Source: Clostridia bacterium
Lineage (GTDB): Bacteria; Bacillota; Clostridia; Christensenellales; Aristaeellaceae
DNA: 64,000 nt
Direction: 5' to 3'
Assembly: GCA_017519405.1 (NCBI GenBank)
Contig: JAFWSH010000006.1
Span: 9,284-73,283 of the forward strand
In this document: positions 29,826 through 50,294 of the stretch, one piece after another
How positions within the stretch are numbered: the first letter of the stretch is position 1
How the letters are laid out: every line of letters starts with the position of its first letter
Translations under genes and position numbers: made by a program
The notes under the pieces: generated by a model
Database searches by the model: none
What the model was told of the DNA's origin: nothing
The model's input: only the letters and a program-made list of their open reading frames with translations

Positions 29826-29974
29826 CAGGCATCGACCTCCTTATGCTCCCGCTGCCATTCCTCGAAGAGCGCTTCTTCCCGCCGGTCAGCTTCAGATGCC
29901 GCGGCACAGAGGGCCCACATCATCAGGCCAAACAATGCGGCCGCGGGAATCGCAATGATGAGAAATACCGTCAT
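29825..29974 (-). CDS. 49-aa single-pass membrane protein (below the ORF-track size cut-off)
   Basis: GAGGAGG 6 nt before ATG 29974. MTVFLIIAIPAAALFGLMMWALCAAASEADRREEALFEEWQREHKEVDA. Its TGA overlaps the ATG of the downstream gene (TGATG at 29823-29827). It fills the otherwise empty 160-nt gap between virB4 and the CD1108-type gene. Confidence 0.6.
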   Translation of the reverse strand: MTVFLIIAIPAAALFGLMMWALCAAASEADRREEALFEEWQREHKEVDA

Positions 29975-29985
29975 GCGCGTCCTCC

Positions 29986-32415: not shown

Positions 32416-32773
32416 GAAGGATCTTATTTACCTCCTGTCGGTTACGGATGTTCTGCTCCACCGTTGCGTAAAAGTTGTCCGTCTCGTACACCCGCGTCCG
32501 GGGCCGGACGAAGCGGGCCTGGACGTAGTGCTTCAGGAGAACCTCCAGGGGCTGTCCATGCCGCTCAAACATGGCGAACATGAAAAACGGCAGCATCACG
32601 ACGATCATGAGCGCTGCCGCCATGCTGACGCCGATGACGTTCTTGGTCAGGAAGAACAGAGGCACACCCACCAGCGCGCCCAGGCCGAAGCAGATGACCT
32701 GGCGCTTGGTCAGATTGAAGAGAAACTTGGATTTAACCCTTGTAAGGTCCTTGGGTACCGGCACATAGGCCAT
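32399..32773 (-). CDS. PrgI-family T4SS membrane protein
   Basis: MAYVPVPKDLTRVKSKFLFNLTKRQVICFGLGALVGVPLFFLTKNVIGVSMAAALMIVVMLPFFMFAMFE is a typical PrgI family N-terminus with two TM segments. Confidence 0.8.
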   Translation of the reverse strand: MAYVPVPKDLTRVKSKFLFNLTKRQVICFGLGALVGVPLFFLTKNVIGVSMAAALMIVVMLPFFMFAMFERHGQPLEVLLKHYVQARFVRPRTRVYETDNFYATVEQNIRNRQEVNKILHGKDK

Positions 32774-32776
32774 TTC

Positions 32777-32980
32777 TTATCCCTCCTTCCCACGTCGGGG
32801 CTGATTCCGCCAGCAGCAGTTGCGCTGCCTCTCCGGCAGGATCTTGCCCCGCTGATCCCGGCTGCCTTGCCGCTTGGGCTTGCGCTTCCGCAGCCGTCCA
32901 CGCTGCTTCTGCCTGCCCTTCGGCTCCGGCGGCTTCCCGAAGACGGAAGCGATACTGGTCGCTATTTTCATATTGCTCAT
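32777..32980 (-). CDS. 67-aa extremely basic small protein (hypothetical)
   Basis: GAGGAG 6 nt before ATG 32980. MSNMKIATSIASVFGKPPEPKGRQKQRGRLRKRKPKRQGSRDQRGKILPERQRNCCWRNQPRRGKEG. The longer 105-aa track ORF has no SD. Confidence 0.45.
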   Translation of the reverse strand: MSNMKIATSIASVFGKPPEPKGRQKQRGRLRKRKPKRQGSRDQRGKILPERQRNCCWRNQPRRGKEG

Positions 32981-32996
32981 CGTTTGCTCCTCAGGC

Positions 32997-33866
32997 TTAA
33001 TGGGCGTTAAAGATGGACTTCGCCACACTGCTGGACTTGAACAGCGTGAAACACAACAGCACCGTGTAGCCAATGCATGTCCAAAGCGCCGCACTCACAT
33101 CGCTGCCCACGCTGATGCCCTGCACCAGTACCGCGTAGATGCCGACACAGACCATGATCAGGAAAGCCTGGAATCCCAGCGCGAACAGGGAACGCAGGTA
33201 GTTCTGTCCCATCTGGCCCCATTCCCGGTTCACCATGGTCGCCATGGGGATCGGGGCAACGGAGGTCACCATGTAGATCTCGATCATGCGTCCATAAACG
33301 ATGATGAAGATGCAGATGCTGAGAACCCACGCGATAATGCCCATGAGGGAAGACTGGAACCACAATCCGAACAGCGGGCCGATGTCCATCTCCATGAGCC
33401 GGGCTTCCATGTCTCCCAGGATCGTTGACACATCCAGCGCGGTCTCTCCGATGATCACGCCCGCCGCCTGACTGACCACATGCTGCGCGACGTCAAATAC
33501 GGCCATCACGATGTTCCAGGTGTTGGTGACGATGAGCACAGCCGCAAAAGTCTTGATGATCCATTTGAAGAAAATGAACGTCTCAAACTCGTGCATGTTG
33601 TTGCGGTCGATCAGGAGCTGGATAAGCTCCATGCACATGACGAAGGTCAGGATAATGCCCGCAATAGGCACCACCACGTTTTCCGAAAGGGTCCGGATCA
33701 TGCTGAAGATGCTGCCGTTCCACGCCTGGGGCGTCTTGCCCACAGTGGAAGCCACATCGGCCACACGGGTATTGATGCTGTCAAACAGCCCGGAAAGGTT
33801 GCTGACAATGCCGCCGACCAGGAGCCCTTTCAGCCATTCTGTGATCTTGTCCCATATGAAGTTCAA
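32997..33866 (-). CDS. VirB6/TrbL-like polytopic T4SS membrane protein (CD0415/CD1112-type)
   Basis: 289 aa, about 6 TM segments. N-terminus MNFIWDKITEWLKGLLVGGIVSNLSGLFDSINTRVADVASTVGKTPQAWN is typical of this family. Confidence 0.8.
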   Translation of the reverse strand: MNFIWDKITEWLKGLLVGGIVSNLSGLFDSINTRVADVASTVGKTPQAWNGSIFSMIRTLSENVVVPIAGIILTFVMCMELIQLLIDRNNMHEFETFIFFKWIIKTFAAVLIVTNTWNIVMAVFDVAQHVVSQAAGVIIGETALDVSTILGDMEARLMEMDIGPLFGLWFQSSLMGIIAWVLSICIFIIVYGRMIEIYMVTSVAPIPMATMVNREWGQMGQNYLRSLFALGFQAFLIMVCVGIYAVLVQGISVGSDVSAALWTCIGYTVLLCFTLFKSSSVAKSIFNAH

Positions 33867-33933
33867 AGGGCATCCCTCCTAAAAGCCCCCTCCCGCGGGC
33901 TGCGGGAGAGGGCGGTTGGTGCTGCGAGAGGCA

Positions 33934-34149
33934 TCAGCCGAAGAGACCGCTCAGCAGAGGAACGAGGGTGGTGCCGATCAGGGCGACACCGCCGCCGGCC
34001 ATCAGCTGCTTGATACCCTGGGACTTGGCACCGGGGTTATCGTTGCCGTAACCTTCCAGCAGATTGATGACGCCCCAGATGCCGAGACCGGCACCGATGG
34101 CAATCACAAGCGTCTGCAGCACAGTGACGGCAGAGGAGAAAAAAGCCAT
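33934..34149 (-). CDS. Maff2-family small membrane protein
   Basis: GGAGG 7 nt before ATG 34149. MAFFSSAVTVLQTLVIAIGAGLGIWGVINLLEGYGNDNPGAKSQGIKQLMAGGGVALIGTTLVPLLSGLF is Maff2. Confidence 0.8.
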   Translation of the reverse strand: MAFFSSAVTVLQTLVIAIGAGLGIWGVINLLEGYGNDNPGAKSQGIKQLMAGGGVALIGTTLVPLLSGLFG

Positions 34150-34283
34150 ACACATACCTCCTTGTACGTGAAAGGGCCGCCGTTTCCGGCAGCCCAGGTG
34201 GAATGAATGCCTGTTCGGACTGGCAGCGCTCTTCACTGCCACGACAGGCGTATTATCTGGTTATTCAGTTGTTGGCAGGACCA

Positions 34284-35597
34284 TCAGAGCAGGTTGTCAT
34301 ACCCGTCTGTCAGCAGCGTATCGTCCGTCATATCCTCCAGAAGCGCCTCTTCATCCTCTTCTGTTACATCCATCTCCCAGACCTGGCTTTCTTCCTCCAG
34401 GCGTAGTTTCATCTGCCGGTGCAGATAGCTTTCGATGTGGAAGGCGTTCTTTGGATCGGAATCTGACAGATACCGGTAGTTGGGGTGTGCCGTGATGTCA
34501 TACTTGTCCGACAGGAAGGGCCGAACGCCGCGCAGCTGCAGAATGCACTTCCCGCCGTCCATCACAGCCAGCTCATCCATGGACATCAGGCTCTTGCCGA
34601 GCTTCTGGTAGTTCAAGCTGTGGGAGATTTCCCGGCCCCGGCTTTCACCGGTATTGAAGGTGTCGATGGTTTCCTTGCCCAGCAGTTCTTCCATCTCCTT
34701 CAGGGTGGTCTTTTCCTTTCCGCCCAGGAACAGCAGCGTATCGCAGTTGCCCACAATGGTATCCGCGTTGTCCTTGTAGATGGCTTTCAGCTGGGACTGG
34801 GCCTGCAAGACGATGCACGCGGAGATCTCCCGGCTGCGGATGGTGGCGATGAGCTTTTCAAAGTTCGGAATCTGTCCGATATTGGCAAACTCATCGATCA
34901 GGCACCGCACATGCACCGGGAGCCTGCCGCCGTAGACATCATCCGCCTTCTCGCAGAGCAGGTTGAACATCTGACTGTAGGCCATGCTGATCAGGAAATT
35001 GAAGCTGGCGTCCGTGTCGGACATGATCAGGAACAGGGCTGTCCGCTGGTCACCGATGGTGTCCAGGTGCAGCTCATCATAGGCGGTGATGTCCCGCAGC
35101 TCCTGAATATCGAAGACCGCCAGGCGCGCGCCGCAGCTGACGAGTATGCTCTTGGCCGTCTTGCCGGCAGCCATCCGATACTTCGCGTACTGCCTGACGG
35201 CAAAGTGCCCCGGTTTCTCCCTGGCAAGCTTTTCAAAGGCCAGATCCACCTCATTCCGGAAGTCCTCATCGTCCTCCCGGACCTCCATCTTGTTCAGCAT
35301 ATCGATCAGCTCAGAGAAGTTCTGACGCTCCGGGGGCAATTCATAATGAATGTACCCAATCAGCGCGATGTAGAGCAACGTTTCCGCCTTCACCCAGAAA
35401 TCCTCGCCGGCCTTGCCTTCACCCTTGGTATTGGAGATCAGGACCGTGACCAGCTTCAGGATGTCCTTTTCACTGTGAATGTAGGCGAAAGGATTGTAGT
35501 GCATCGACTTGCCGAAATTGATCGTATTGAAGGCGCGCACGTCATATCCGGCGGCGACCAGAAGCTTGCCGGTTTCAACGATCAGGGTCCCTTTGGG
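34284..35597 (-). pseudogene. virD4: VirD4/TraG-type coupling protein (T4CP), C-terminal 437 codons, severed from its N-terminus by the nested transposon
   Basis: Frame reads (stop TGA 35598-35600) PKGTLIVETGKLLVAAGYDVRAFNTINFGKSMHYNPFAYI...RCLIDEFANIG. There is no start codon or SD at the point where homology begins. It continues exactly from ...IVVTDPKG of the fragment at 53355-53894. Confidence 0.85.
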
Positions 35598-35643
35598 TCA
35601 AGTACTTTTACGCTGTTTTTTTCAGGAAATTTAAAAAAAACCT

Positions 35644-35814
35644 TTACGATGTTGGTTCACAAAGAGAATTTGAGCGAATCAGCTTCAAAACCTTGTCGTT
35701 CATGGTCGCTTTGCCCTTCTCCGCAAAGCGAAAGATGACCTTGTAGATCGTCTTGCCATATCTGATGGTCATTGCTGTTTTCAGCTCAGTCACTTCTTTC
35801 TTTTCCTTGTCCAT
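35644..35814 (-). CDS. tnpW: TnpW-like small protein (56 aa; below ORF-track cut-off)
   Basis: GAGGTG 7 nt before ATG 35814. MDKEKKEVTELKTAMTIRYGKTIYKVIFRFAEKGKATMNDKVLKLIRSNSLCEPTS resembles the transposon-encoded TnpW family (..IG.TTY.V...F.......T..DK(I/V)L.LI). It is the last gene before the element end, as in Tn4451. Confidence 0.6.
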   Translation of the reverse strand: MDKEKKEVTELKTAMTIRYGKTIYKVIFRFAEKGKATMNDKVLKLIRSNSLCEPTS

Positions 35815-35874
35815 TGGAATCACCTCTTTGTCTTACTCCCCGGCAGAGCCTTTCACAGCCCAGCCGGGGAGATT

Positions 35875-37515
35875 TTATTGTCGCTCCTGATCGTACTTTT
35901 TCTCCAGCACGGGGCTTTTCGCCACAGGCTGCTGCTCATCATCTTCCTGCGTCACCGCATCAATGGCAGCATTCATAACCTGTTCCAGCTCACGCCGGTT
36001 TTCCCGTACTTCCATCTGCTCTGAAAAGTCTTCCCGCTCCGGCAGCGCATCCGGGATCGCCTTGCGCGTCCAGTAGCGGAGCTTGCTCAGCTGATCCAGC
36101 TCTGCATGAATCTGTCCCAATTTGGGACGAAGTGATTCGTTCTGTTCTGTCAGCTCTTGCCGCTGTGCTTTCAGCTTCTTCACGCCGGCCTTGTCCAGGG
36201 GAAGGGAAACACCCAGCTTCTTCGAGAGTTTCTCGCGAAGGTAGGTTGCCTTGCGGAGCCGCTTCAGTTCATCGGCGTGTTCGGCCTGGAAGGCTTCGCG
36301 CCGGCCTTTGAAATGAATCCTGTCCAACTGATCCTGGAGAGGAGCAAGCTCTCTGTAATCCTCGATCGCTGTAAAGAAGTCATCGATATCACGAATCACT
36401 TGATTGTTGCTGCGGACATCGCCCTGCATCAGTTCAAGCTGAACCCTGGTGTTGGACAGTCGAAGCGCCAGATCTTCCACTGTAGTAATGCCGGTCTCTT
36501 TCATCAGAATGATCATCTTGGACATATCCTGCAGATCTCTGATGCCAGCCTTTTCACGTGCGTATTTACCCCAGCTCTCCCGGCCTGCTTCGCGCATGGC
36601 CCGGTAGCTGAGGATCACATCGGTCAGGGAATGAGTCTGCGGATTCTCCAGCACTTCCTGGTGGTGGATTGCTGCCATCAGTTCCGCGATCTTATCGCCC
36701 AGCTTCTTCGCTGCCCGTTTCAGAGAACCGAGAAGTCGATTGATGCTGAGAATCTCACGATTCTTTTCGCCCATCTCCGTGACGGTGCCTTTCCGCTCCA
36801 TGGCGGCTGCGGCGGGGCCGAGATGCCGTTGAGGCAGACGGTCTTCAATGCCTTGTCGCTCCAAAGAGCGCATGTCGATTCGCTCCGGCCTGCCAGCAGC
36901 TTCAAGGGCAGCGTTCTGCATCACTTCCCAGTCATGTCGCCAGATCTCGGCGTACTTGTGATCGTTCCAGTCTACAGTGTTGACGTTGCGGCGTTTCCAT
37001 TTCCCATTCTTGCCCTTGACACGGTTGCCTCGTTCATCCAGCACGTATTCCGTCCGGGTCTTATCGAGCCACTTGCCATGCTCGTCCATAGCCCGGAGAG
37101 TCAGCAGAAGATGAACATGGGGGTTGCCGTCGCCTTCGTCGTGATAGTACAGATCACAGATCATGCCTTTGCTGACAAACTCCTGCTGGCAGTAGTCCCG
37201 AATCAGCGCCAGGTTCTGCTCATACGTCAGTTCCTTCGGGAGAACAATGAGCATCCGTCGGGCCGTCTGAGCATCCTTTCTTTTCTCAGCGGCATCCACC
37301 GCATTCCAGAGTGCCTGGCTGTCAGCGTATTCCCGGGGAGCGTTGTCTGGCAGCATGACTTCCCGATAAACGACACGCTCCGGGCTGCTGTGTGGATGCT
37401 TCCATTCATGATCGCGCTCGGAGTACATTTTCTCTCCGGCGTTATAAGCTGCAGTAGCCATGACGGACTGATCTTTGCGGCCTATATACGATATGGAAAA
37501 CGTGGGACAGGGAAT
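35875..37515 (-). CDS. MobQ-type (MobA/MobL family) relaxase; first ATG at 37461 but homology starts upstream, probable ATT start at 37515
   Basis: AAYNAGEKMY (catalytic Tyr region), HDEGDGNPHVHLLLT (HxDx..NPHxH motif), long coiled-coil C-terminus. In-frame codons upstream of the ATG encode IPCPTFSISYIGRKDQSV, matching the family N-terminal strand. GGAGGTG 10 nt upstream of ATT 37513-37515. Confidence 0.8.
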   Translation of the reverse strand: MPCPTFSISYIGRKDQSVMATAAYNAGEKMYSERDHEWKHPHSSPERVVYREVMLPDNAPREYADSQALWNAVDAAEKRKDAQTARRMLIVLPKELTYEQNLALIRDYCQQEFVSKGMICDLYYHDEGDGNPHVHLLLTLRAMDEHGKWLDKTRTEYVLDERGNRVKGKNGKWKRRNVNTVDWNDHKYAEIWRHDWEVMQNAALEAAGRPERIDMRSLERQGIEDRLPQRHLGPAAAAMERKGTVTEMGEKNREILSINRLLGSLKRAAKKLGDKIAELMAAIHHQEVLENPQTHSLTDVILSYRAMREAGRESWGKYAREKAGIRDLQDMSKMIILMKETGITTVEDLALRLSNTRVQLELMQGDVRSNNQVIRDIDDFFTAIEDYRELAPLQDQLDRIHFKGRREAFQAEHADELKRLRKATYLREKLSKKLGVSLPLDKAGVKKLKAQRQELTEQNESLRPKLGQIHAELDQLSKLRYWTRKAIPDALPEREDFSEQMEVRENRRELEQVMNAAIDAVTQEDDEQQPVAKSPVLEKKYDQERQ

Positions 37516-37650
37516 TTCGTTCTCACCTCCGTTTCTCAGCGCTATGCGCTGTAAAGGGGTAGCTGACGCCAGTCAGCGCAGGGGCTTGCCCCTGTGATGC
37601 CACAAAGGCAGCGCCGACTGGCATCGAGCTCCCCGCAGGGGCCCTCGGAG

Positions 37651-37700
37651 AGCGCACTGTGTTCCGAAGGAACACATAAGTGCGCCCTCAACAAGTTGAG
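37651..37700 (+). promoter_or_regulatory. oriT of the nested transposon (MobQ / RSF1010-pIP501 type nick region)
   Basis: Inverted repeat GTGTTCC (37659-37665) / GGAACAC (37669-37675), followed immediately by A-TAAGTGCGCCCT (37677-37688), the conserved MobQ nic-region core. Further hairpins lie upstream (GCTGAC..GTCAGC, CAGGGG..CCCCTG) and downstream (CCCTCAAC..GTTGAGGG). Located just upstream of the MobQ relaxase gene. Confidence 0.75.
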
Positions 37701-37703
37701 GGA

Positions 37704-38069
37704 TCAGCTTGTTGCCGAAAACCGTTCCTCCGTCCGGGTGGCCTGCGGGGCGGTCTGCGGCGTGGTCCGGGCATTCTCAAACAGCTGCTCCATGGTGATC
37801 CTGTTCTCGCCGGAGCGGATTTCCCGCATCTGGGTCAGCAGCTTCTGAATGCCGGAGAAGCTGAACACATGGTTCAGGAAAAGCTTGATGTCTTCGTCGG
37901 TGAAGACTTCAGCCTTGTCGCCCAGGTGCATGGTCAGTTCGCCGCCACGCTGATAGATACTGTGGTTGCGATCCTTCCGTGCCTGAACTTTGATCTTTTG
38001 ATCCAGTTCTGCCTTTTGTGCCTCAATGCGCTGCATCGAAGCTTTCAGCTTATCCAACTGTTTGCTCAT
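37704..38069 (-). CDS. DUF3847 domain protein (usual partner of MobA/MobL relaxases in Firmicute elements)
   Basis: MSKQLDKLKASMQRIEAQKAELDQKIKVQARKDRNHSIYQRGGELTMHLG...FLNHVF is the typical DUF3847 coiled-coil plus C-terminal segment. Confidence 0.7.
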   Translation of the reverse strand: MSKQLDKLKASMQRIEAQKAELDQKIKVQARKDRNHSIYQRGGELTMHLGDKAEVFTDEDIKLFLNHVFSFSGIQKLLTQMREIRSGENRITMEQLFENARTTPQTAPQATRTEERFSATS

Positions 38070-38164
38070 CGGAATCCTCCTTCCTCATTGATACTTTTGC
38101 TGGCCAGCAAAGGAAAAGGCACCGGCTGTTTTGATCAGTCGATGCCCTCTGCTTTGATGGCCGT

Positions 38165-38464
38165 TCAAGTGTTGGTTCTGATGCCGAGTCCTGCTGCTTT
38201 CGCTTTCTCGCTGGCCGCACTCCGTTTTTCCTCGCTCATGGGCGGGAGAAGCCGGATGGACACACGATCCTTCTGAATCTCGTACTCGGCATAGTCCGGA
38301 TACTTCTGCTTGTCAACGCGCCGGCACACTTCCGGGTATCGGGTGGCAAACTCCCGCAGGCGTCTGCGCAGGCCAGGGTCGTATGTGCAGATGGTTACGG
38401 GATCGCGGCTCTGGTTGTAGAGCAGGACGGTCTCTTTTTCGTGCTTGGTGAGACGATAGGACAT
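38165..38464 (-). CDS. Hypothetical 99-aa protein of the transposon backbone
   Basis: GGAGG 7 nt before ATG 38464. MSYRLTKHEKETVLLYNQSRDPVTICTYDPGLRRRLREFATRYPEVCRRV... Family not recognised. Confidence 0.6.
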   Translation of the reverse strand: MSYRLTKHEKETVLLYNQSRDPVTICTYDPGLRRRLREFATRYPEVCRRVDKQKYPDYAEYEIQKDRVSIRLLPPMSEEKRSAASEKAKAAGLGIRTNT

Positions 38465-38525
38465 GGGAACCTCCTATTTCGATAACTTGTTTCATTTGGC
38501 TGAAATCTCGCCAAACTAATTGCAC

Positions 38526-38716
38526 CTATTCGTTCTATTCGTTAATTGCCAAAAAGCCCTTGATACATAAGGGATTTGAGCTACTTTGAAATGCAGTTCC
38601 TTCCAGAATCGCATTTTCCACCATTATCAATATATAGGCATCAATTTAATGGCGCATACTATATGTTGTATTAAACGCCCTTGAGGAAGAAAAACAATAA
38701 CGTCGAATAGAACGAA
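38526..38716. repeat. 9-mer repeats CTATTCGTT: two tandem direct copies plus an inverted 13-nt copy 160 bp away, bracketing the AT-rich divergent control region
   Basis: CTATTCGTT at 38526-38534 and 38535-38543. CGAATAGAACGAA at 38704-38716 is the exact reverse complement of TTCGTTCTATTCG at 38529-38541. The inverted copy ends 17 nt before the -35 box. Confidence 0.7.
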
Positions 38717-38732
38717 AGCAAAAAATACATTA

Positions 38733-38761
38733 TTGACAATGTTATAGTTTACATGTATACT
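38733..38761 (+). promoter_or_regulatory. Near-consensus sigma-70/sigma-A promoter of the peptide-rSAM-UvrA operon
   Basis: TTGACA (38733-38738), 17-nt spacer, TATACT (38756-38761). 30 nt upstream of ATG 38792. Lies in the AT-rich intergenic region. Confidence 0.7.
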
Positions 38762-38791
38762 GGCATCAACCTATAGAAGGAGGTGCAGTAC

Positions 38792-38974
38792 ATGGTCTCT
38801 TATTCTGGAGATGCGTACAATGCGCTTTACGGCAACATTACCCCCACAATGATGGCTGGTCCCCGCGAGAAGTGCATGTCTCAGTGCACTGGCTGTAAGT
38901 GCAGCTGCAGCTCTAAGTGCAAGTACACTGACAATCGCCCTGAGGTTACGGACGAAGAATGGGAGGTTCTGTAA
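38792..38974 (+). CDS. Cys-rich precursor-like peptide A (60 aa, 6 Cys)
   Basis: GAAGGAGG with 8-nt spacing to ATG 38792. MVSYSGDAYNALYGNITPTMMAGPREK-CMSQCTGCKCSCSSKCK-YTDNRPEVTDEEWEVL. Layout is leader / Cys core / acidic tail. Homologous to peptide B. Confidence 0.75.
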   Translation: MVSYSGDAYNALYGNITPTMMAGPREKCMSQCTGCKCSCSSKCKYTDNRPEVTDEEWEVL

Positions 38975-38975
38975 C

Positions 38976-39140
38976 ATGAGTGCAACCACGAACGAGTATG
39001 CCCAGATGTTCGGCAACATCTCTGATATGAGCAACATCTCCATGGCAAAGTGCGCCTGTGTGAAGTGCAACTCCTGCACTTGCGCCTGCTCCTGCTCCAG
39101 GTGCAAGCGGGCTCCTGAGAAGGAGGATATCGAATGGTAA
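38976..39140 (+). CDS. Cys-rich precursor-like peptide B (54 aa, 8 Cys; below ORF-track cut-off)
   Basis: GGGAGG (38961-38966) 9 nt before ATG 38976, 1 nt after the stop of peptide A. MSATTNEYAQMFGNISDMSNISMAK-CACVKCNSCTCACSCSRCK-RAPEKEDIEW. Its TAA (39138-39140) overlaps the rSAM ATG (ATGGTAA). Confidence 0.75.
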   Translation: MSATTNEYAQMFGNISDMSNISMAKCACVKCNSCTCACSCSRCKRAPEKEDIEW

Positions 39141-40540
39141 AGCTTTCTCGCTTTGCACATGAGTATGACCTCGGTGATGCGATAGCCCTTTATCACTCGC
39201 TGAGGATGAAACCTGTGTATTTGACGAGAAAGGCTTATGAGGACTTGCAGGTGTGGCTTGCAAGTCCTCTTTGCTCTACACCCGAAAATGCACCGGAGAA
39301 TCTGACCAACGAAGTCGCTGAACTGATAAAATGCAAGGTGCTTACCAAAACGGATGATGAAGATGATAAGGTGCTCAGGTTTATCCGCTCCAGAGCACCT
39401 GTCCCCGCTATTAGTGTCTGCTACATGATTCTAAGTGAGCAGTGCAATCTGGCCTGCAAATACTGCTTCCTCGGAAACAACGATGAAGAAAAACGGCGGC
39501 AGTTCTTGCTTGAGGATATGAGTGCTGAGACAGCAGATCAGGCAATTGATTTTTTCATCAGGCAGATGAAACTTTCTGATCTGGATTTTGAAGACGCAAA
39601 TCCGGTCGTGATTTTCTATGGCGGCGAGCCAATGGTCAATTTTCCGGTACTTGTTCACATTGCTGAAAGACTCAATGCACTCAGGAGTGTTGAGAAGTGC
39701 GTTAAGAATGTCGAGATGTCCATGGTCACGAACGGATTATTGCTGACTGAAGAACGCATTCTGAAGCTCAAGGAGCTCGGCGTCTCAATTGCTATCTCTT
39801 GCGATGGTTTTACCGATGCCGCGAACAATATGCGTGTTGATCTCGGTGGAAACCCCGTCTTTGCCCGTGTGCTTAAGACTCTAGACCTTTGCAAACGCTT
39901 GGGCGTAGACGTCGCACTCTCTGTGACACTGAGTGAGGAAACAATCAAAGACACCGTGAATATTCTGAATCTTGTAGACAATTACGGTGTCAAGTCCTTT
40001 GGGTTTAACATCTTGATGTCGAGTGATACATTCGTTCTTCCGGAAAGCTACAATGAAGCAGCAGCTCAATTCATCATTGATGAGTTTGTAGAGCTTCGGA
40101 AAAAAGGCATATACGAAGACCGTATGATGCGGAAACTCGACTCTTTCTCCAAGGCGCAGGTCTATTATTCTGACTGTGCCGCAACAGCGGGCGGACAGAT
40201 CGTTGTGGCACCTAACGGCCAGGTCGGCATCTGTCATGGATGCCTGTACGATAAAAAATACTTTGTCACTTCGATTTACGATCAATCATTTGATGCCACA
40301 AAGGATCCAACGTTTATCGAGTGGTCGCAGCTTACACCGCTGAACAAAGATTGTTGTCTCGACTGCCCGGCCCTTGGAATCTGCGGCGGAGGCTGCCCGA
40401 TCAATGCGATGCACCTAAAGCCCGGCAACACGATTCATTCCGTTGACGAGCGATTCTGCGTGCATGCCAAGAAGACGCTGGATTTCTTCATCCGTGATCT
40501 ATATCGCATCATATGCGAAAGCAGGGGTAAAAATGGCTGA
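39134..40540 (+). CDS. Radical SAM / SPASM-domain peptide-modifying enzyme with N-terminal RRE-like extension
   Basis: GAGAAGGAGGA SD. CNLACKYC (CX3CX2C). C-terminal full SPASM pattern: C-X18-C with GX4C (CAATAGGQIVVAPNGQVGIC), then CLDCPALGICGGGC (CX2CX5CX3C). About 100 aa N-terminal to the rSAM core, where RiPP-recognition elements normally sit. Confidence 0.9.
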   Translation: MVKLSRFAHEYDLGDAIALYHSLRMKPVYLTRKAYEDLQVWLASPLCSTPENAPENLTNEVAELIKCKVLTKTDDEDDKVLRFIRSRAPVPAISVCYMILSEQCNLACKYCFLGNNDEEKRRQFLLEDMSAETADQAIDFFIRQMKLSDLDFEDANPVVIFYGGEPMVNFPVLVHIAERLNALRSVEKCVKNVEMSMVTNGLLLTEERILKLKELGVSIAISCDGFTDAANNMRVDLGGNPVFARVLKTLDLCKRLGVDVALSVTLSEETIKDTVNILNLVDNYGVKSFGFNILMSSDTFVLPESYNEAAAQFIIDEFVELRKKGIYEDRMMRKLDSFSKAQVYYSDCAATAGGQIVVAPNGQVGICHGCLYDKKYFVTSIYDQSFDATKDPTFIEWSQLTPLNKDCCLDCPALGICGGGCPINAMHLKPGNTIHSVDERFCVHAKKTLDFFIRDLYRIICESRGKNG

Positions 40541-42671
40541 TGTCATTCGGGTTGAAGGAATCGAAACCAACAATCTTAGAGGCCTTGATGTTGAGCTTGA
40601 AAAAAGAGCTCTTAACCTGATTATCGGGCCATCCGGTAGTGGAAAGTCATCTTTAGCATACGATACAATTGCACAGATTGGTCAGCATGAATATATGGCC
40701 ATGTTTGCTGACGATGTTGCTGAACCCTCTTACAAGGTTAAGGGGTATCACAATATGGTTGTTGCGGTGCCGATCAGACAATCTAACAGCAACAATAATA
40801 TGCACTCAACCATTGGAACGTATTTCGGTCTTAACCGGAGTATCGCTTTCATTTTTGCGTCCATGACAGGTATCCCAGAGGAGCACTTCACATTAAACCG
40901 AGCTGCTAATCTGTGCGAAAACTGTCATGGACTTGGTTTTATCAGCGTTATTGACGAAAACAGGATTATCGATTACAGCCTTCCGATCTCACAGAATCCT
41001 TTCCGATGCTGGAATAAATTCAAAGATTTCTACCGCCAGATTCTTGTCGCTTACTGCCACGATGTAGGAATTGACCCGTCAAAAACATTCCGGCAGCTGT
41101 CGGAAAAAGAAAAGCATCTGCTTCTCTATGGTGAAGGGAAGACTAAGTACAAGTTCCTCTACAAGCGAACCAACGGAACCTCACAACGTACATCCTGCTA
41201 TTATGGCATCATGACTGGGAAAGCGATGATGCCAGATTACAGTACCGCGAGCAGGTTTTATAGCGAGAGGACTTGCCCATGTTGTGGAGGTCAGAAGTAC
41301 GGAGCTGAACAACGGCAGTACCTGTTTAACGGTCTGTCAATTGGCGACTTTATGACTATGCCCTTTGCGGAACTCATCAATTTCGTAGAGGAATCAAAGA
41401 AAAAGGTAAAGGATGTTCGTATCTCTTTTGCTTTCAATAGTCTCCACTCCTTTCTGAAAAAGGCTATTGATCTAAATCTGGGGCATCTGTTCTTCCATCG
41501 CGCAATACCGACTTTGTCTGGTGGAGAATTGCAGCGCCTGAGAATGGTGCAGGTTTTTAATGCGCAGCTTTCTGATATGCTGGTTGTCCTGGATGAACCT
41601 CTGGCAGGGTTGTCGGGACGCGAGAAGAAAGCAATCTATGAAAACATCATAGCTCTCTGTGACCGTCATACTGTTCTTGTGGTCGATCATAGCGACGTGT
41701 TTGTCAGCAAAGCCCGCAGAATCTATGCTCTTGGCCCAGGTGGCGGTTCAAAGGGCGGACAGATGATTGATGCTGCTCAATATATCCAGCAAGAGAGTCA
41801 ATCGCGCTCTTTGAGTGTGTTCAAGACTGATGCTATGCTACCAATAGAGGTATCAAGTCCTGTCTATCAATATCAAGGCACCAGAATCGCGATCATGCAG
41901 TCTGCTATGAATATGATCACCGGGCCTTCCGGGGTCGGAAAATCAACACTGCTTCGTGAGTATTTCCCGCAGGTTTTTGATGAGTACTTGTATATAAACC
42001 AGAAACCAATGATGGGAAACAAAACTTCCAGTGTTATTACAGCTCTGGATCTGTTTGGAAGAATCCAGGATCTATTTGCGAAGAAAACTGGGAAAGACCG
42101 GCGTTGGTTCTCCAACCAATCCGGCTGCGATGGAGCTTGCCCGGTTTGTGGTGGCGCCGGCTACATAGAGTACGGATACGATGCCAGGACAAAATCAATA
42201 CTGCCTTGCGAAGAGTGTGAAGGAACAGGATTCAACAAAGTTCTGAAGAAATATAAGATTGATGGCAAAACCATATTTGATATATGGAACATGACCATTG
42301 ATGAAGGTATTCAGTACTTTAGAAAGCTCGACTCCAAGATCAGTACTACCTTCGAAGAAGCATCTTCAATCCTCCTGGGGCACTTGAAGATTGGGCAACC
42401 TACTTCCACTCTTTCAGGTGGAGAAAATATCCGCATCAAGATCATGAAGGCTGCCAAATCAACAGCGAAGGTTCTCGGCATTGATGAACCGTTCAAAGGG
42501 TTAAGTCCATCTGAAATATATCTTGTCGCTTCTTTCTTTGATCGCATTCGAGCGAAAGGTAAAACGATTGTCGTTGTAGATCACTCAGAGGAAGCTGAGA
42601 GATACTTTGGACACAGGATTGTATTAGCACAGAAGGACGGCATACTAATAGAATCTCGGAGACAAATATAA
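40533..42671 (+). CDS. UvrA paralog (712 aa), class II-like: both ABC ATPase modules and Zn modules present, UvrB-binding domain absent
   Basis: ATG 40533 overlaps the rSAM stop by 8 nt. VEGIETNNLRGLDVELEKRALNLIIGPSGSGKSSLAYDT (compare UvrA ..THNLKNIDLDIPR.KL.V.TGLSGSGKSSLAFDT). FTLNRAANLCENCHGLGF and CPCCGGQKY Zn module. LSGGELQRLRM. Second Walker A ITGPSGVGKSTLL. CPVCGGAGY...CEECEGTGF. LSGGENIRIKI. The segment between LLFARVG-equivalent and FSFN-equivalent that carries Zn1 plus the UvrB-binding domain in UvrA is missing. Confidence 0.85.
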   Translation: MADVIRVEGIETNNLRGLDVELEKRALNLIIGPSGSGKSSLAYDTIAQIGQHEYMAMFADDVAEPSYKVKGYHNMVVAVPIRQSNSNNNMHSTIGTYFGLNRSIAFIFASMTGIPEEHFTLNRAANLCENCHGLGFISVIDENRIIDYSLPISQNPFRCWNKFKDFYRQILVAYCHDVGIDPSKTFRQLSEKEKHLLLYGEGKTKYKFLYKRTNGTSQRTSCYYGIMTGKAMMPDYSTASRFYSERTCPCCGGQKYGAEQRQYLFNGLSIGDFMTMPFAELINFVEESKKKVKDVRISFAFNSLHSFLKKAIDLNLGHLFFHRAIPTLSGGELQRLRMVQVFNAQLSDMLVVLDEPLAGLSGREKKAIYENIIALCDRHTVLVVDHSDVFVSKARRIYALGPGGGSKGGQMIDAAQYIQQESQSRSLSVFKTDAMLPIEVSSPVYQYQGTRIAIMQSAMNMITGPSGVGKSTLLREYFPQVFDEYLYINQKPMMGNKTSSVITALDLFGRIQDLFAKKTGKDRRWFSNQSGCDGACPVCGGAGYIEYGYDARTKSILPCEECEGTGFNKVLKKYKIDGKTIFDIWNMTIDEGIQYFRKLDSKISTTFEEASSILLGHLKIGQPTSTLSGGENIRIKIMKAAKSTAKVLGIDEPFKGLSPSEIYLVASFFDRIRAKGKTIVVVDHSEEAERYFGHRIVLAQKDGILIESRRQI

Positions 42672-42720
42672 ACGCTACATGATAGACACCGGGCGCACAT
42701 CTGTAGTTGGGGGTGACGAC

Positions 42721-45714
42721 ATGGGACGTCCAGAGGACGAGCGGGTGAAAATTCCAGCCTTGCTACATCTGACAAGGCTTGGTTATAGCTACCTCTCGCT
42801 CCAGGAATGCGAGCATGACGAGGAAACCAATATCTTCCTCTCCATATTTCGCGACTCCCTGGCACAGATCAACATGCAGCCCGTAAGCGAGGAGAAGGCT
42901 GCTGACATCATCCGAGAGATTCGGAACGCCTTGGATAATGACGATCTGGGTCGTGAGTTTTTCAAGCTCCTTCAGGCTGGCTGCAGCGGGTTGAAGCTGA
43001 TTGACTTTGAGCATCCAGATCAGAATAGTTGGCATGTGGTCACTGAGCTACCCTGCAAGAGGGATCAGGACGAATTCAGGCCTGACATCACGCTGCTGAT
43101 CAACGGATTGCCGCTGGTGTTCATCGAGGTCAAACGACCCAACAATGTAGATGGCATCCAGGCTGAACGGGATCGGATGGATCGCCGGCTGAGTAATCCA
43201 AAGTTCCGGCGGTTCATCAACATGACCCAGTTGATGATCTTCTCGAACAATGGAGAATATGATGATTCCGAGACGCCTCCGCTCTCCGGCGCTTTCTATG
43301 CGACCATCGGAAAGAAGCGACTGTTCTTCAATCATTTTCGAGAGGAACAGGAAGGCCGGTTTGCGCAGATTGCGGATTTGGATCCCACGGCGGAACGGAA
43401 GATCCTGCTGGACACACATCTCCCTGCCATCAAGCACCATGCAGAGTATCTGACCAATCTGAGCCCTACCACACCGACGCACCGCATTCTCTCTTCCATG
43501 GCCAGCAGGGATCGACTGCTGTTCTTGCTGCGCTATGGTTTGGTCTATGTTGATCGGGTGAACGATAACGGCATCACGGAGACAGAGAAGCATGTGATGC
43601 GCTACCCGCAGTTGTTCGCCACGCAGGCCATTGAGAAGCGAATCTCTGATGGCGGCCGAAAAGGTGTCATCTGGCACACCCAGGGAAGCGGTAAAACAGC
43701 ATTGGCCTACTTCAATGTCCGGTACCTGTCGGACTATTTCCAGCATCAGGGAGTGATCGCCCGGTTCTACTTCATCGTGGATCGGTTGGATCTGCTTCAG
43801 CAGGCAGCGGATGAATTCCGCGCCAGAGGACTGACGGTCAACGAAGTCAATTCCAAGGATGCTTTTGAAAAGGCTTTGACACCGGTTCGGGAGAGCAGCA
43901 CCTCCGGCGGTCTCTCCATAACCGTGGTGAATATCCAGAAGTTCTCCGATGAAGCGGTAGCTCAGCCAAGTGACTACGGCCTTCGGGTACAGCGTGTGTA
44001 CTTCATGGATGAAGCGCACCGCAGCTACAATCCTAAAGGCTCATTCCTGTCTTATTTGCAGGCTTCGGACCGGCAGGCGATATGGATTGCACTGACCGGC
44101 ACTCCGCTGATCGGTGAAGGCTATAACACCAAAGATGTCTTTGGACCCTACATTCATAAATACTACTACAATGCCTCCATCAAGGATGGCTATACCCTGC
44201 GGTTGATGCGGGAGGGTATTCGCACCGAATACCGTGTGCAGATGCAAGGCGTTCTGGAGAGCATCCGCACTCTCGAGCGCTCCATTCAACGGGAAGACCT
44301 CTATGCCCATGAGAAGTATGTTCAGCCGTTGGTGCAGTATATCGTGGAGGATTTCACACAAGCCCGCGTCAGGCTTCACGATCCCTCCATCGGCGGAATG
44401 ATCATCTGCGATTCCTCCAAGCAGGCCCGGGAGGTCTTCCGGCAGATGAAGGATCTGCCGGATCTGAAGGTCGCGCTGATCCTGCACGATGAGGATGACA
44501 TCGAAACCAGAAAGCAGGAGCGTATCGACTTCAAGAAGGGCGCTATCGATATTCTGATTGTCTTCAACATGCTACTGACGGGCTTTGACGCACCTCGGCT
44601 CAAGCGGCTGTACGTAGGCAGAGTGATCAAGGATCACAACCTGCTGCAGGCGCTTACCCGTGTTAATCGACCCTATGGACAGCATCGTTTCGGCACCGTG
44701 ATTGACTTTGCCGACATCCGGAAAGAGTTCGACAAGACCAACCAGGAATACATGCGGGAGCTGCAAACGGAGCTGGGTGATGCTTTTTCCGAGTATGACA
44801 GCATCTTCATGACCGAAGATGAAATCAGGACCGCTCTGACGGCTATTGAGGACGTACTGTTCCTCTATGACCGGGTCAACATCTCTGTCTTCACGCAGCA
44901 GATCTCTGACAATGTGGGCAAACCGGAATTGCTTCAACTGCAAAAAGCTCTGACCCAGTATCGAGAAATGGCGAATGTTGCCCGGCTGTATGGCTATGAT
45001 GCCCTTGCCTCATCGTTCACCGTGAGCAACGCTTCCGCCATGCTGACCGAGGTCACTAATCGGATCAAATTGCTGAATCAGCGCGAAACGCTGGATCAAG
45101 CCGTTGATATGCAGTCTGTGCTGAACATCGCCATGGATCAGATCCAATTTGTATTCAAGCGGATCTCCAAGGATGAAATGGTCATCGCGGACAGTTACCG
45201 GGAGATGCTGGAGCGTACCCGACAGACGATGCACAGCAATCACGACCCGGACGATCCGGAGTATGTCACACTGCTGGAAGAGCTGCAACGGCTGCTGCAG
45301 AAGAAAAAGATCGAGGAACTGACCGCCGAGGAGATGCGGGAGGATATGGCCGCCCTGGATCGCATCCGGACACAAGCTGCGGAGCTCAACCGTCGGGATG
45401 CAATGCTGACCCAGCGTTACGAGAACGATCCACGCTTTATGCGCATCCATAAGCGCCTGCGGGCCAATCCGCCGCCTATCGGGAGCGATGTGCAGATCCA
45501 TCAGGTGCTGATGCGCTTGAAGCACTCAACAGATGAGAGTGTGATGATGAACAGCGGCATTCTTCGGAACGAAGCTTATTTCACTCAGGCGCTGATGCCT
45601 CAGATCATTGACGCTCTACGTTCCAGCCATCTGCCCTTCACCCTGCCGCAGGTGCAGTTTGTGGGACAAACAATCTCCCGGGAATACTTCCGTGAAAGGA
45701 CATGGGCCAGCTGA
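42721..45714 (+). CDS. hsdR: Type I restriction enzyme R subunit
   Basis: MGRPEDERVKIPALLHLTRLGYSYLS N-terminus (alternative ATG 42679). PD-(D/E)xK-like region ITLLINGLPLVFIEVKRP. Helicase motifs VIWHTQGSGKTALA and VYFMDEAHRS. Stop overlaps the hsdM start (TGATG). Confidence 0.9.
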   Translation: MGRPEDERVKIPALLHLTRLGYSYLSLQECEHDEETNIFLSIFRDSLAQINMQPVSEEKAADIIREIRNALDNDDLGREFFKLLQAGCSGLKLIDFEHPDQNSWHVVTELPCKRDQDEFRPDITLLINGLPLVFIEVKRPNNVDGIQAERDRMDRRLSNPKFRRFINMTQLMIFSNNGEYDDSETPPLSGAFYATIGKKRLFFNHFREEQEGRFAQIADLDPTAERKILLDTHLPAIKHHAEYLTNLSPTTPTHRILSSMASRDRLLFLLRYGLVYVDRVNDNGITETEKHVMRYPQLFATQAIEKRISDGGRKGVIWHTQGSGKTALAYFNVRYLSDYFQHQGVIARFYFIVDRLDLLQQAADEFRARGLTVNEVNSKDAFEKALTPVRESSTSGGLSITVVNIQKFSDEAVAQPSDYGLRVQRVYFMDEAHRSYNPKGSFLSYLQASDRQAIWIALTGTPLIGEGYNTKDVFGPYIHKYYYNASIKDGYTLRLMREGIRTEYRVQMQGVLESIRTLERSIQREDLYAHEKYVQPLVQYIVEDFTQARVRLHDPSIGGMIICDSSKQAREVFRQMKDLPDLKVALILHDEDDIETRKQERIDFKKGAIDILIVFNMLLTGFDAPRLKRLYVGRVIKDHNLLQALTRVNRPYGQHRFGTVIDFADIRKEFDKTNQEYMRELQTELGDAFSEYDSIFMTEDEIRTALTAIEDVLFLYDRVNISVFTQQISDNVGKPELLQLQKALTQYREMANVARLYGYDALASSFTVSNASAMLTEVTNRIKLLNQRETLDQAVDMQSVLNIAMDQIQFVFKRISKDEMVIADSYREMLERTRQTMHSNHDPDDPEYVTLLEELQRLLQKKKIEELTAEEMREDMAALDRIRTQAAELNRRDAMLTQRYENDPRFMRIHKRLRANPPPIGSDVQIHQVLMRLKHSTDESVMMNSGILRNEAYFTQALMPQIIDALRSSHLPFTLPQVQFVGQTISREYFRERTWAS

Positions 45715-47345
45715 TGGATACGATTGAGATTACCCGGCAAACCAAGGCCATGATTGATGGTCTGAAGACCATATGCGCCAATTTCGGCCTGGGCAATGCC
45801 GCCAGCGAATACAAGATCATAACCGAGGTTTTCCTCTACAAATTTCTGAACGACAAGTTCCTCTGGCAGGTACGGAAGGTGGTTCCAGCCCTGCAGGGGT
45901 GTACCGACGCACAGGTAGAGGAGTATCTTGCTACACTCAGCGAAGACGACTTCACGCTGATCCTCTATCAGCTGGCTCCCGACACCGCCCGTCTGCAGCG
46001 GAATCAACTCATCTCTGCTCTGTACAATCGACAGAATGAGGAGCGCTTCCATGAGCTGTTCGACACGACTCTGAAGGACATCTCCGATCAGAATCTTGAG
46101 GTCTTTTCGGTGTCGGCAGGCACATCCTCACGCATCCGTCTCTTCGGCGGCCTCTCTCAGTATGTGATTGAGGAAGAAAAGAAAGCGCCCTTCTGTCGTG
46201 CGCTGATCGGACAGCTGGTGTCGGATTCTTTCTCCGCTGTGTTCGACCAGAAGTATGATTTCTTCGCTGACATCTTCGAGTACCTGGTGAAGGATTACAA
46301 CAAGGACAGCGGTAAATACGCTGAGTACTACACGCCCCATGCCATCGCCACGATTCTGGCCCGCATCCTTGTGCGAGAACCAGTGCAGGATGTGTCCGTG
46401 TATGACCCCGCAGCAGGATCCGGCACGCTGGTGCTGGCCACCGCTCATGCCATCGGCGAGAACAAGTGCACCATCTATACCCAGGATATCAGCCAGAAAT
46501 CCAATGAATTCCTGCGCCTGAACCTGATCCTGAACAGCCTGGTGCACTCCCTGCCCAATGTAATTCATGACGATACTCTTGTGAGCCCCCGGCACCTGAA
46601 CGCCCGGGGCGATGGCATCGCCACCTTCGATTTCATCGTCAGCAATCCGCCCTTTAATATGGACTTCAGCAAAACCCGGGATCAGCTGGCTGGTGAAGCC
46701 TACAAAGCCCGCTTCTTCGCCGGGGTTCCAAATATCCCCAACAAGAAGCTGGACAGCATGGCTGTCTACCAGATGTTCCTGCAGCACATCATCGTCTCCC
46801 TGAATGAGCACGGAAAGGCAGCGGTAGTAGTTCCGACAGGCTTTCTGACTGCCGGTAGCGGCATCCCGCTGAATATTCGTCAGCGCCTGGTGGATCATCA
46901 CTGGCTCCGTGGCGTTGTGAGCATGCCAAGCAATATCTTTGCCAATACCGGCACCAACGTTTCCGTGGTGTTCATCGATAAGGATCATACCGGGGACGTC
47001 ATCCTGATGGATGCCAGTAAGCTGGGCAGTAAGGTCAAGGTGGATGACAACCAGCGAACCGTCCTTTCCGACGAGGAGATTGAACGGATCATCACCGCAT
47101 TCAACGCTGGAGAACCTATCGAAGATTTCTGCGTTGTCGTCAGTGAGGAGCAGATCAAAGAAAAGAAATACAGCTTCTCCGCCGGGCAGTATTTCGAGGT
47201 GAAGATTGAGTACGTGAACCTGACCCCGGCCGAATTTGCGGAGAAAATGCAGGACTACCAGTCCCGGTTGCAGGCAATGTTTGAGGATGGACATCGGCTG
47301 GAGGCAGAGATTATGGAGCAGTTGGGGCGGGTGAAATATGAATAA
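45714..47345 (+). CDS. hsdM: Type I R-M N6-adenine DNA methyltransferase subunit
   Basis: VYDPAAGSGTLVL (SAM-binding motif I), IVSNPPFNMDF (NPPF motif IV), HsdM-N-like N-terminus (ITEVFLYKFLNDKF). Alternative ATG at 45702. Confidence 0.9.
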   Translation: MDTIEITRQTKAMIDGLKTICANFGLGNAASEYKIITEVFLYKFLNDKFLWQVRKVVPALQGCTDAQVEEYLATLSEDDFTLILYQLAPDTARLQRNQLISALYNRQNEERFHELFDTTLKDISDQNLEVFSVSAGTSSRIRLFGGLSQYVIEEEKKAPFCRALIGQLVSDSFSAVFDQKYDFFADIFEYLVKDYNKDSGKYAEYYTPHAIATILARILVREPVQDVSVYDPAAGSGTLVLATAHAIGENKCTIYTQDISQKSNEFLRLNLILNSLVHSLPNVIHDDTLVSPRHLNARGDGIATFDFIVSNPPFNMDFSKTRDQLAGEAYKARFFAGVPNIPNKKLDSMAVYQMFLQHIIVSLNEHGKAAVVVPTGFLTAGSGIPLNIRQRLVDHHWLRGVVSMPSNIFANTGTNVSVVFIDKDHTGDVILMDASKLGSKVKVDDNQRTVLSDEEIERIITAFNAGEPIEDFCVVVSEEQIKEKKYSFSAGQYFEVKIEYVNLTPAEFAEKMQDYQSRLQAMFEDGHRLEAEIMEQLGRVKYE

Positions 47346-48585: not shown

Positions 48586-48608
48586 AACAGAAAGCGAGGA
48601 AAGAATTC

Positions 48609-48995: not shown

Positions 48996-49055
48996 CAGAA
49001 ATATTCCTTTATCAGTTTTGAATGGCGTAGAGGCGGCACTCTCCAACAAGTGTTG

Positions 49056-49762: not shown

Positions 49763-49851
49763 GTTGATCTCTCCTTGTGTTTATGGGAATGGAAAAGCCG
49801 CCTCCGAAGAAGCGGCTGGGTGACAAAGTGGGTGTTAAACCGGGTGATAAA

Positions 49852-50154: not shown

Positions 50155-50294
50155 AGTCGGCACCTCCTGCATCCATTCTTTGTGCAAAACTCCAGTCTTG
50201 AGTCTATCCGTTTCTGCTCCGGGCGGGCAACGGTGATCTTGCCCACCCGGAGTATCGGTTCCCAAAGGTCTGGTCTGGAACTTACTTTTTGAGC

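Follow-up and report, generated by a model that had tools for sequence, protein, structure and literature searches.

Two described systems are among those closest to the locus studied here. SCIFF peptides and their maturases, CteB and ScfB, combine a short precursor, made of an N-terminal leader and a C-terminal cysteine cluster, with a radical S-adenosylmethionine (rSAM) enzyme that carries a SPASM domain and a recognition element (RRE) for ribosomally synthesized and posttranslationally modified peptides (RiPPs). The FibroRumin family has a bioinformatic definition only, through NCBIfam models of a Cys-rich RiPP (TIGR04135) and of its maturase (TIGR04136). We analyzed a 64,000-nucleotide stretch of DNA from a Clostridia bacterium (positions 9,284 to 73,283 of contig JAFWSH010000006.1, GenBank assembly GCA_017519405.1), called the window below, in which two adjacent small open reading frames (ORFs), here named pepA and pepB, precede an rSAM gene. 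We consider it probable that pepA and pepB encode the tandem precursors of a FibroRumin rSAM RiPP cassette, in which the leaders dock on the maturase, the cores are cross-linked, and the resulting product is directed at DNA.

The rSAM enzyme of the window scored 806 bits with TIGR04136 ("FibroRumin system radical SAM peptide maturase"), twice the cut-off of 400, and contains both the CxxxCxxC motif and the seven-Cys SPASM motif expected of a FibroRumin maturase. PepB scored 72.8 bits with TIGR04135 ("FibroRumin family radical SAM-modified Cys-rich RiPP"; cut-off, 45). The gene arrangement is that of the family as well, namely, tandem homologous small genes with a C-terminal Cys-rich region directly upstream of the TIGR04136 maturase gene. 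Both ORFs are tagged with PF27848 (FibroRuminTarg), a newer Pfam entry that we met only in precomputed annotations, in the precomputed annotation of an identical contig, and on the RefSeq Campylobacter plasmid NZ_CP012551.1 the two peptides and the maturase are annotated by name (PGAP). The window also matches UQYI01000014.1, from an uncultured Clostridiales metagenome-assembled genome (MAG) of the assembly project UMGS. By these models, the window cassette is a clear member of a catalogued family and not a new class, which corrects the initial annotation, made from the sequence of the window alone. Within this family, which counts 1,089 clusters at 90% identity in public data (E ≤ 1e-60), the window is set apart by a PepA that stays below the NCBIfam cut-off and by the divergence of its peptide pair. 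What is new is the anatomy: a pair of A- and B-type peptides that can be fused, tails that are coded twice over, a covarying hairpin, and a UvrA-like partner, which lies outside the curated models.

The likeness to SCIFF extends to the enzyme, since CteB is the best PDB sequence match and a top fold match of the FibroRumin maturase. The two systems likewise come without a dedicated protease or exporter. Membership in SCIFF was nevertheless rejected: the enzyme reached 99.8 bits on the SCIFF maturase model TIGR03974 (cut-off, 425), and the peptides matched only TIGR04135. The window system differs from SCIFF in having two paralogous peptides, a conserved follower, horizontal mobility, and the link to a UvrA-like protein. 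The nearest family other than its own is PapB, of the PapA/PapB (freyrasin) system, with 129.6 bits (under the cut-off of 340). Both systems have a repetitive core with multiple cysteines; the CxxxD motifs handled by PapB use Asp/Glu acceptors, and FibroRumin cores are without these.

Both small ORFs are present on the plus strand, with sequences identical to those quoted in the initial annotation. In the program-made list of ORFs, pepA begins at a GTG at 38783; we judged the ATG at 38792 to be the most plausible start. Their relatives were collected from 47 loci of species-representative genomes and about 40 metagenome contexts, close relatives being those with a maturase at least 58% identical. 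A search for small ORFs beside homologous rSAM genes had been proposed as a check of the peptides, and both peptide types indeed recur upstream of the maturase in about 40 independent loci. The close relatives carry a peptide pair of two conserved types. In type A, for which we recovered 27 distinct orthologous sequences, the core reads C-x-x-Q-C-T-G-C-x-C-x-C-x-C-S-C and the tail [FV]-[ED]-W-E-x-x. The core of type B reads C-A-C-V-A-C-N-S-C-T-C-A-C-S-C-[RK], and the last residue of its tail is Trp. The profiles of the two types align with each other at 97.9% probability (E 3.9e-13; hhalign), which bears out the view that the two precursors are paralogous. In alignments of the peptide sets, the window pair was the most divergent A/B pair recovered: its PepB has an extra S-R-C insert and thus 8 cysteines instead of the 7 of type B elsewhere, and its PepA has 6 cysteines instead of the 7 of other type A peptides and a follower 4 amino acids longer.

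The cores of both types hardly change. The ratio of nonsynonymous to synonymous differences per site (pN/pS) was 0.019 in the type B core and 0.059 in the type A core, at a pS of 0.81 to 0.88, near saturation, compared with 0.34 to 0.45 in the leaders and 0.39 to 0.45 in the tails. These values indicate that the cores are under extreme purifying selection. Together with the conserved sets, they mark pepA and pepB as real, conserved, paralogous precursor genes. Both ORFs have a Shine-Dalgarno sequence and an ATG of their own and belong to a family matched by curated hidden Markov models. That they are chance frames in a leader region rich in Cys codons, for which only their small size and their omission by gene callers in several contigs could be cited, is excluded for practical purposes by the peptide sets conserved across phyla, by saturated synonymous sites with almost no nonsynonymous change in the cores, and by the match between the A and B profiles.

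In four loci (L018 to L021), the pair is replaced by a fused B+A precursor (at about 5726 to 6001 in L018), consisting of a B-like leader and core, followed by an A-like C-I-S-Q-C-T-G-C and an A- or B-like Trp tail. Because some genomes fuse both types in this way, a Rosetta-stone argument suggests joint action of A and B. In one Campylobacter MAG lineage, a single distinct Cys-rich peptide stands in place of the pair. In several contigs (L071 to L080, L082, and L084 among them), the caller skipped one or both peptides though the DNA encodes them. The initial annotation had predicted that PepB would be overlooked by routine annotation; this was partly right, since metagenome callers do often skip one or both peptides, but PepB is the canonical member of the pair and PepA the outlier.

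Several sequence features had been described as shared by PepA and PepB, and they fared differently when the family was compared. The leader motif holds family-wide, in the form Y-x-x-[LM]-[LFYM]-G-x-I. A lysine before the first cysteine applies to type B, where this residue is always K or R, but in type A it is confined to the lineage of the window. The C-S-C-S-x-C-K block is present in both peptides of the window and is specific to this lineage rather than to the family. As for the acidic tail ending in E-W, an invariant Trp in an acidic tail is found throughout the family, but its conservation lies partly at the nucleotide level. The layout of leader, core, and follower serving the adjacent rSAM enzyme is upheld by the curated family model, strict synteny, translational coupling, and purifying selection.

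The nucleotide-level constraint on the tails comes from the way in which the genes are joined. The W-E-[VE] codons of the type A tail double as the Shine-Dalgarno sequence of pepB (38955 to 38978 in the window), and each of the 24 distinct A/B junctions (24/24) has TGGGAGG or an equivalent 8 to 10 nt upstream of the pepB start codon. At the other end, the final NNA-TGG-TAA of pepB holds the ATG of the maturase gene (gaATGGtaa; 39128 to 39140 in the window), with the same 7-nt overlap in 18 of 24 loci. The residue before the Trp in the PepB tail varies (E, V, A, or K), and the third base of its codon is always A. Since the tails are thus dual coded, their synonymous divergence is depressed (pS, 0.31 to 0.49), and part of the E-W conservation acts on nucleotides, the codons of the PepA tail supplying the pepB Shine-Dalgarno sequence and those of the PepB tail the rSAM start codon. 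The Trp is however retained where the ATG overlap is absent (L007, L013, L022, L029, and Campylobacter), so that a role of this residue in the peptide itself is also likely. The gene for the UvrA-like ATPase in turn starts 8 nt before the maturase stop. Read from the DNA, pepA, pepB, the maturase gene, and the UvrA-like ATPase gene are one tightly coupled four-gene unit. Its candidate sigma-70-type promoter, TTGACA/TATACT, is the best promoter-like match within 38400 to 42800.

About 100 nt into the maturase gene, a terminator scan flagged an RNA hairpin, which is kept in 24 of 27 loci. In the alignment, 91.5% of the cells were paired, and compensatory changes occurred in 9 of the 14 pairs; none of 500 shuffles reached this, and controls in which the hairpin was slid gave 33 to 55%. 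The covarying positions include a third codon base at which the change is synonymous, and since this base covaries with its pairing partner, the constraint acts on the RNA. No Rfam family matched the leader or the hairpin region. Terminator or stabilizer devices that raise precursor mRNA over enzyme mRNA are known from other RiPP operons, and we infer that the hairpin is a candidate for such a device, either as a leaky terminator or as a 3' stabilizer.

The maturase has the features of an RRE-rSAM-SPASM enzyme. Across 40 homologues, the rSAM motif cysteines C104, C108, and C111 and the SPASM cysteines C348, C367, C408, C411, C417, C421, and C442 are invariant, and C370 is present in at least 90%. 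In an AlphaFold2 model (overall pLDDT, 78.9), the N terminus is predicted to form three strands (residues 8 to 12, 16 to 21, and 26 to 31) and three helices (32 to 43, 55 to 66, and 76 to 86) at a pLDDT of 89 to 96, that is, the PqqD-like winged helix of an RRE. The proposal of the initial annotation that the leader motif is a handle for an RRE fits this modelled β3-α3 RRE-like domain (pLDDT >90). Over its whole length, the model matched the folds of TigE (TM-score, 0.71), CteB (0.63 to 0.65), ChlB, anSME, and SuiB, of which CteB, TigE, and SuiB bear an RRE, and the nearest curated families by sequence are all Cys directed (PapB, CefB, QhpD, the SCIFF maturase, and anSME). Because of these sequence neighbors, we favor thioether formation: the maturase probably makes sulfur-to-carbon cross-links of the ranthipeptide type in the cores.

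The fourth gene, which the initial annotation of the two peptides did not include, is the most informative clue to function. Its product matched PF17755 and ABC_tran (Pfam), with two ATP-binding cassette (ABC) domains, and has the makeup of a class II UvrA-like protein: two intact ABC domains, an insertion domain, and the zinc modules Zn2 and Zn3, with neither a UvrB-binding domain nor Zn1. Among homologues, no variation occurs in the Walker A and B motifs, LSGGE, the H-loops, or the cysteines of Zn2 and Zn3. An assignment as canonical UvrA was rejected, as the protein reached only 335 bits on TIGR00630 (cut-off, 729.8) and the UvrB-binding domain is absent; residues 113 to 262 of Thermotoga maritima UvrA have no counterpart in it. 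By sequence, its PDB matches were UvrA, Ecm16, and DrUvrA2. Its AlphaFold2 model (pLDDT, 86.9) reached TM-scores of up to 0.83 to UvrA and Ecm16, with a contiguous alignment to Ecm16 (7sh1) over residues 32 to 442 of the query and 40 to 477 of the chain (TM-score, 0.83, normalized to Ecm16). The ATPase stands in a clade apart, its identity to other plasmid-borne short UvrA/DrrC-like paralogues being 30% at most; no curated model covers it, and PGAP labels it "hypothetical protein" or "excinuclease."

This ATPase is the only other gene conserved in the neighborhoods of the maturase. It lies directly downstream of the maturase gene in all 23 close genome loci (23/23), at 48 to 64% identity. The metagenome contexts that we examined all contain it, as does the Campylobacter plasmid. 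The taxa that carry it include Firmicutes, Fibrobacter, Synergistota, Coriobacteriia, Spirochaetes, Bacteroidales, Bacillus, and Kosakonia (Enterobacteriaceae), and the cassette with the ATPase spans at least eight phyla. No protease and no exporter or transporter was conserved in the neighborhoods of 30 loci. In one lineage (L069 and L070; 9328 to 11452), the UvrA-like gene is split into ORFs of 353 and 370 amino acids and may be a pseudogene or reflect an assembly frameshift. A requirement of the ATPase for maturation was rejected, as reduced relatives do without it. In a Desulfosporosinus locus (L029), the genes for both peptides and the maturase are squeezed in between a helicase-HNH gene and Wadjet jetABC. 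Campylobacter MAGs encode the maturase with one distinct Cys-rich peptide, and a gene for an ABC ATPase lies nearby in convergent orientation.

The closest described counterparts of this protein are Ecm16, DrrC, and UvrA2, with which it has in common two ABC domains, an insertion (DNA-binding) domain, two Zn modules, and the lack of a UvrB-binding domain (PMC10192343, PMC10413001). Ecm16 is without this same domain and handles echinomycin-bound DNA by means of its ATPase and insertion domain (PMC10192343). More generally, a uvrA-like gene is used as a sign that a gene cluster makes a DNA-binding product (PMC10413001). On both sides, the gene is encoded beside a biosynthetic operon; the window ATPase is, however, only about 24 to 30% identical to these proteins, which belong to actinomycete nonribosomal peptide synthetase and polyketide synthase pathways for intercalators, whereas FibroRumin is a RiPP operon of gut, rumen, and oral anaerobes, in which protection is putative.

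The presence of such a partner hints that the mature product acts on DNA, because the cassette crosses phyla without a protease or an exporter but with a DNA-scanning ATPase. We also lean towards a product that acts inside the cell rather than a secreted one, because the module crosses the Gram divide with no genes for export or processing. The sequence of events that we propose is the following. Transcription would start at the TTGACA/TATACT promoter, and the hairpin with its T-run would stop or stabilize part of the transcripts, leaving more mRNA for the peptides than for the enzyme. The leader motif Y-x-x-[LM]-[FLY]-G-x-I would be the docking site of the maturase, which would bind there through its N-terminal RRE, and the enzyme would modify the Cys-rich cores, most likely with ranthipeptide-type thioethers, types A and B working jointly. 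The mature product would be directed to DNA, where the ATPase may either protect the DNA of the producer, as Ecm16 and DrrC do against intercalators, or act as a partner of the product.

Several points weigh against this proposal. Modification has been observed for no FibroRumin member, and literature searches, which also covered UvrA-like proteins together with rSAM enzymes or ranthipeptides, found no publication on the FibroRumin system. PepA of the window is a divergent paralogue that scored 37.1 bits with TIGR04135, under the NCBIfam cut-off of 45. The cores carry few residues suggestive of DNA binding, and the tails are acidic. To our knowledge, the known UvrA-like resistance proteins all protect against actinomycete small-molecule intercalators and not against RiPPs. 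The ATPase is absent from the reduced relatives, namely, Desulfosporosinus L029 and the single-peptide Campylobacter MAG loci (L024 to L030). Finally, the maturase is closest in structure to TigE, an enzyme that forms cyclopropylglycine via a C-C bond (PMC10878394), and the fold alone leaves the chemistry unfixed.

The coordinates of the cassette and of its nearest neighbors are collected in Table 1.

Table 1. Features of the FibroRumin cassette and adjoining genes (positions in the window)
Feature	Coordinates	Strand	Remarks
MobA/MobL relaxase gene	35875-37461	minus	Upstream of the cassette and divergent from it
Candidate sigma-70-type promoter, TTGACA-17 nt-TATACT	38733..38761	+	11/12 consensus positions; 30 nt upstream of pepA ATG
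pepA Shine-Dalgarno, GAAGGAGG	38776..38783	+	Read from the sequence; ends 8 nt before ATG 38792
pepA (type A FibroRumin precursor)	38792..38974	+	60 aa; ATG at 38792, stop ends 38974
PepA regions (approximate)			Leader 1-27, Cys core 28-44, acidic Trp follower 45-60
pepB Shine-Dalgarno, GGGAGG	38961..38966	+	Inside W-E-V codons of pepA tail
pepB (type B, canonical FibroRumin precursor)	38976..39140	+	54 aa; begins 1 base past pepA stop
PepB regions			Leader 1-25, Cys core 26-44 with 8 Cys, follower 45-54 ending I-E-W
RRE-rSAM-SPASM maturase gene	39134..40540	+	468 aa; ATG within last codons of pepB
Predicted RNA hairpin, 14-bp stem, 3-nt loop, then T-rich run	39239..39269	+	Maturase codons 36-46, ~100 nt into the gene
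Class II UvrA-like double ABC ATPase gene	40533..42671	+	712 aa; start from gene call; overlaps maturase end by 8 nt
Complete type I restriction-modification system (hsdR, hsdM, hsdS)	42679-48585		Begin 8 nt past the UvrA-like stop; may be cotranscribed

The cassette of the window is carried as cargo by a conjugative element (about 29000 to 38500 and 48600 to 50500). Upstream, on the minus strand, lies a region with type IV secretion system genes that encodes a TraG-like ATPase, PrgI, TrbL_2, Maff2, a T4 coupling protein, TnpW, the MobA/MobL relaxase, and DUF3847, together with a 99-amino-acid ORF; DUF2513 and TnpV follow past the type I restriction-modification (R-M) genes. The GC content is 0.46 to 0.54 over the cassette and the R-M genes (38001 to 50000) versus 0.54 to 0.61 on either side, which is consistent with recently acquired cargo. 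No tRNA was found in the window. An inverted-repeat scan of 38440 to 38800 gave only short imperfect repeats, and no origin of transfer (oriT) could be assigned; if oriT lies in the spacer at 38465 to 38790, the cassette would start the leading region. The type I R-M genes were rejected as part of the system, as they accompany the cassette only in the element of the window and its near-identical relatives.

Elsewhere, the cassette is found in settings of three kinds. Some are defense islands, with nSTAND, DUF1016, AbiH, PIN, and type I R-M genes, with an OLD-like AAA_15 ATPase, with a PLD-helicase and AIPR, with a helicase-HNH gene and Wadjet, with an McrC-like gene, or with a methyltransferase gene. 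Others are mobile elements and plasmids with relaxases, transposases, serine recombinases, and toxin-antitoxin (TA) genes, and in the remaining ones, at least five in number, the cassette is inserted on its own among housekeeping genes. Counted by hand, about 7 of 18 independent contexts have a defense gene within three genes, and the association with defense is suggestive. When 107 flanking ORFs were counted together, they proved to be a varied mixture of mobile-element, abortive infection/TA, and housekeeping genes; this census, being without resolution per locus, is suggestive only. The Kosakonia cassette DNA had no match in complete Escherichia coli genomes. In two loci (L007, 5221 to 7926, and L067, 13266 to 16097), the cassette is followed by a gene for an ankyrin-repeat protein and then by one for an efflux-type transporter (MatE or MFS).

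These settings bear on the purpose of the product. A tentative alternative agrees with our proposal on the identity of the precursors and departs from it only in the purpose of the product. In this reading, the cassette would be an intracellular conflict system, for antiphage or antiplasmid defense or as an addiction module, in which unexported modified peptides act on DNA with the ATPase or are checked by it. The four genes travel together across at least eight phyla, yet with no conserved protease or exporter. Defense genes adjoin the cassette in several independent contexts, including the type I R-M genes of the window, and relaxase or TA genes adjoin it on plasmids and integrative and conjugative elements. 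The cassette is moreover absent from phage collections, the maturase having no match among INPHARED phages or IMG/VR viral contigs. Against such a system stand the bare insertions among housekeeping genes, the share of contexts with a nearby defense gene, which by our own count is suggestive, and the lack of a PADLOC match beyond generic rSAM and ABC similarity: PADLOC-DB 2.0 has no specific model for the cassette and gave only pVip (1.6e-13, to the rSAM core) and mad3/mad8 (to the ATPase), with no match for the peptides. A more definite version, which we hold to be doubtful, is that the four genes are a self-contained, mobile, DNA-directed conflict module of a new kind that works inside the cell, the peptides being a DNA-damaging or DNA-marking effector, loaded onto DNA or cleared from it by the ATPase, for defense against invading DNA, or the two forming a toxin-antidote pair that stabilizes the mobile element.

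It is also conceivable, though in our view unlikely, that the cassette makes a secreted, bacteriocin-like RiPP, which proteases and transporters of the host would process and export, the UvrA-like protein serving purely for self-immunity. The leader-core layout, the RRE maturase, and a hairpin giving excess precursor are typical of bacteriocin operons, and uvrA-like genes mark self-resistance in gene clusters (PMC10413001). An efflux or ABC gene does lie nearby in a few loci (MatE in L007, MFS in L067, and an ABC ATPase in Campylobacter), but an exporter or peptidase is conserved nowhere among the 30 loci; host-specific export is hard to reconcile with transfer between Gram-positive and Gram-negative bacteria, and the conserved C-terminal follower would need to be removed too.

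Far less probable is a role of the unmodified peptides in binding metal, in the manner of metallothioneins, or Fe-S clusters, with the rSAM enzyme acting on another substrate. The resemblance of the cores to metallothioneins, pointed out in the initial annotation, consists in a similar Cys density and in CxC/CxxC spacing, with 6 to 8 cysteines per 17 to 19 residues or so, and since there are few non-Cys acceptors, some cysteines may stay free and bind metal. It did not hold up in the searches, as neither peptide matched a metallothionein or any other family in our local Pfam copy at an E value of ≤0.01. FibroRumin peptides differ from metallothioneins in their conserved leader and follower and in their coupling to a peptide maturase: the genes are strictly syntenic and translationally coupled with that of an RRE-bearing enzyme. 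Their invariant non-Cys core residues (Q-C-T-G-C in type A and C-N-S-C-T-C in type B) suggest recognition by an enzyme over simple chelation, and the family is curated as a RiPP target.

FibroRumin is a large family of gut, rumen, and oral bacteria without a known product. Our analysis turns what was a database label into statements that can be tested: there are two types of peptide, which can be fused, a device for stoichiometry, no export machinery, and a UvrA-like partner. If it is true that this partner marks a DNA-directed product, the family would hold a new chemotype of DNA-targeting peptide, and, in the human gut microbiome, the cassette might represent a new conflict system of mobile elements. 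Should the four genes be a conflict module, they would provide the first case of a RiPP paired with a cognate ATPase of the DNA-repair type. If the link to DNA is false, the window cassette would be an ordinary member of an uncharacterized RiPP family.

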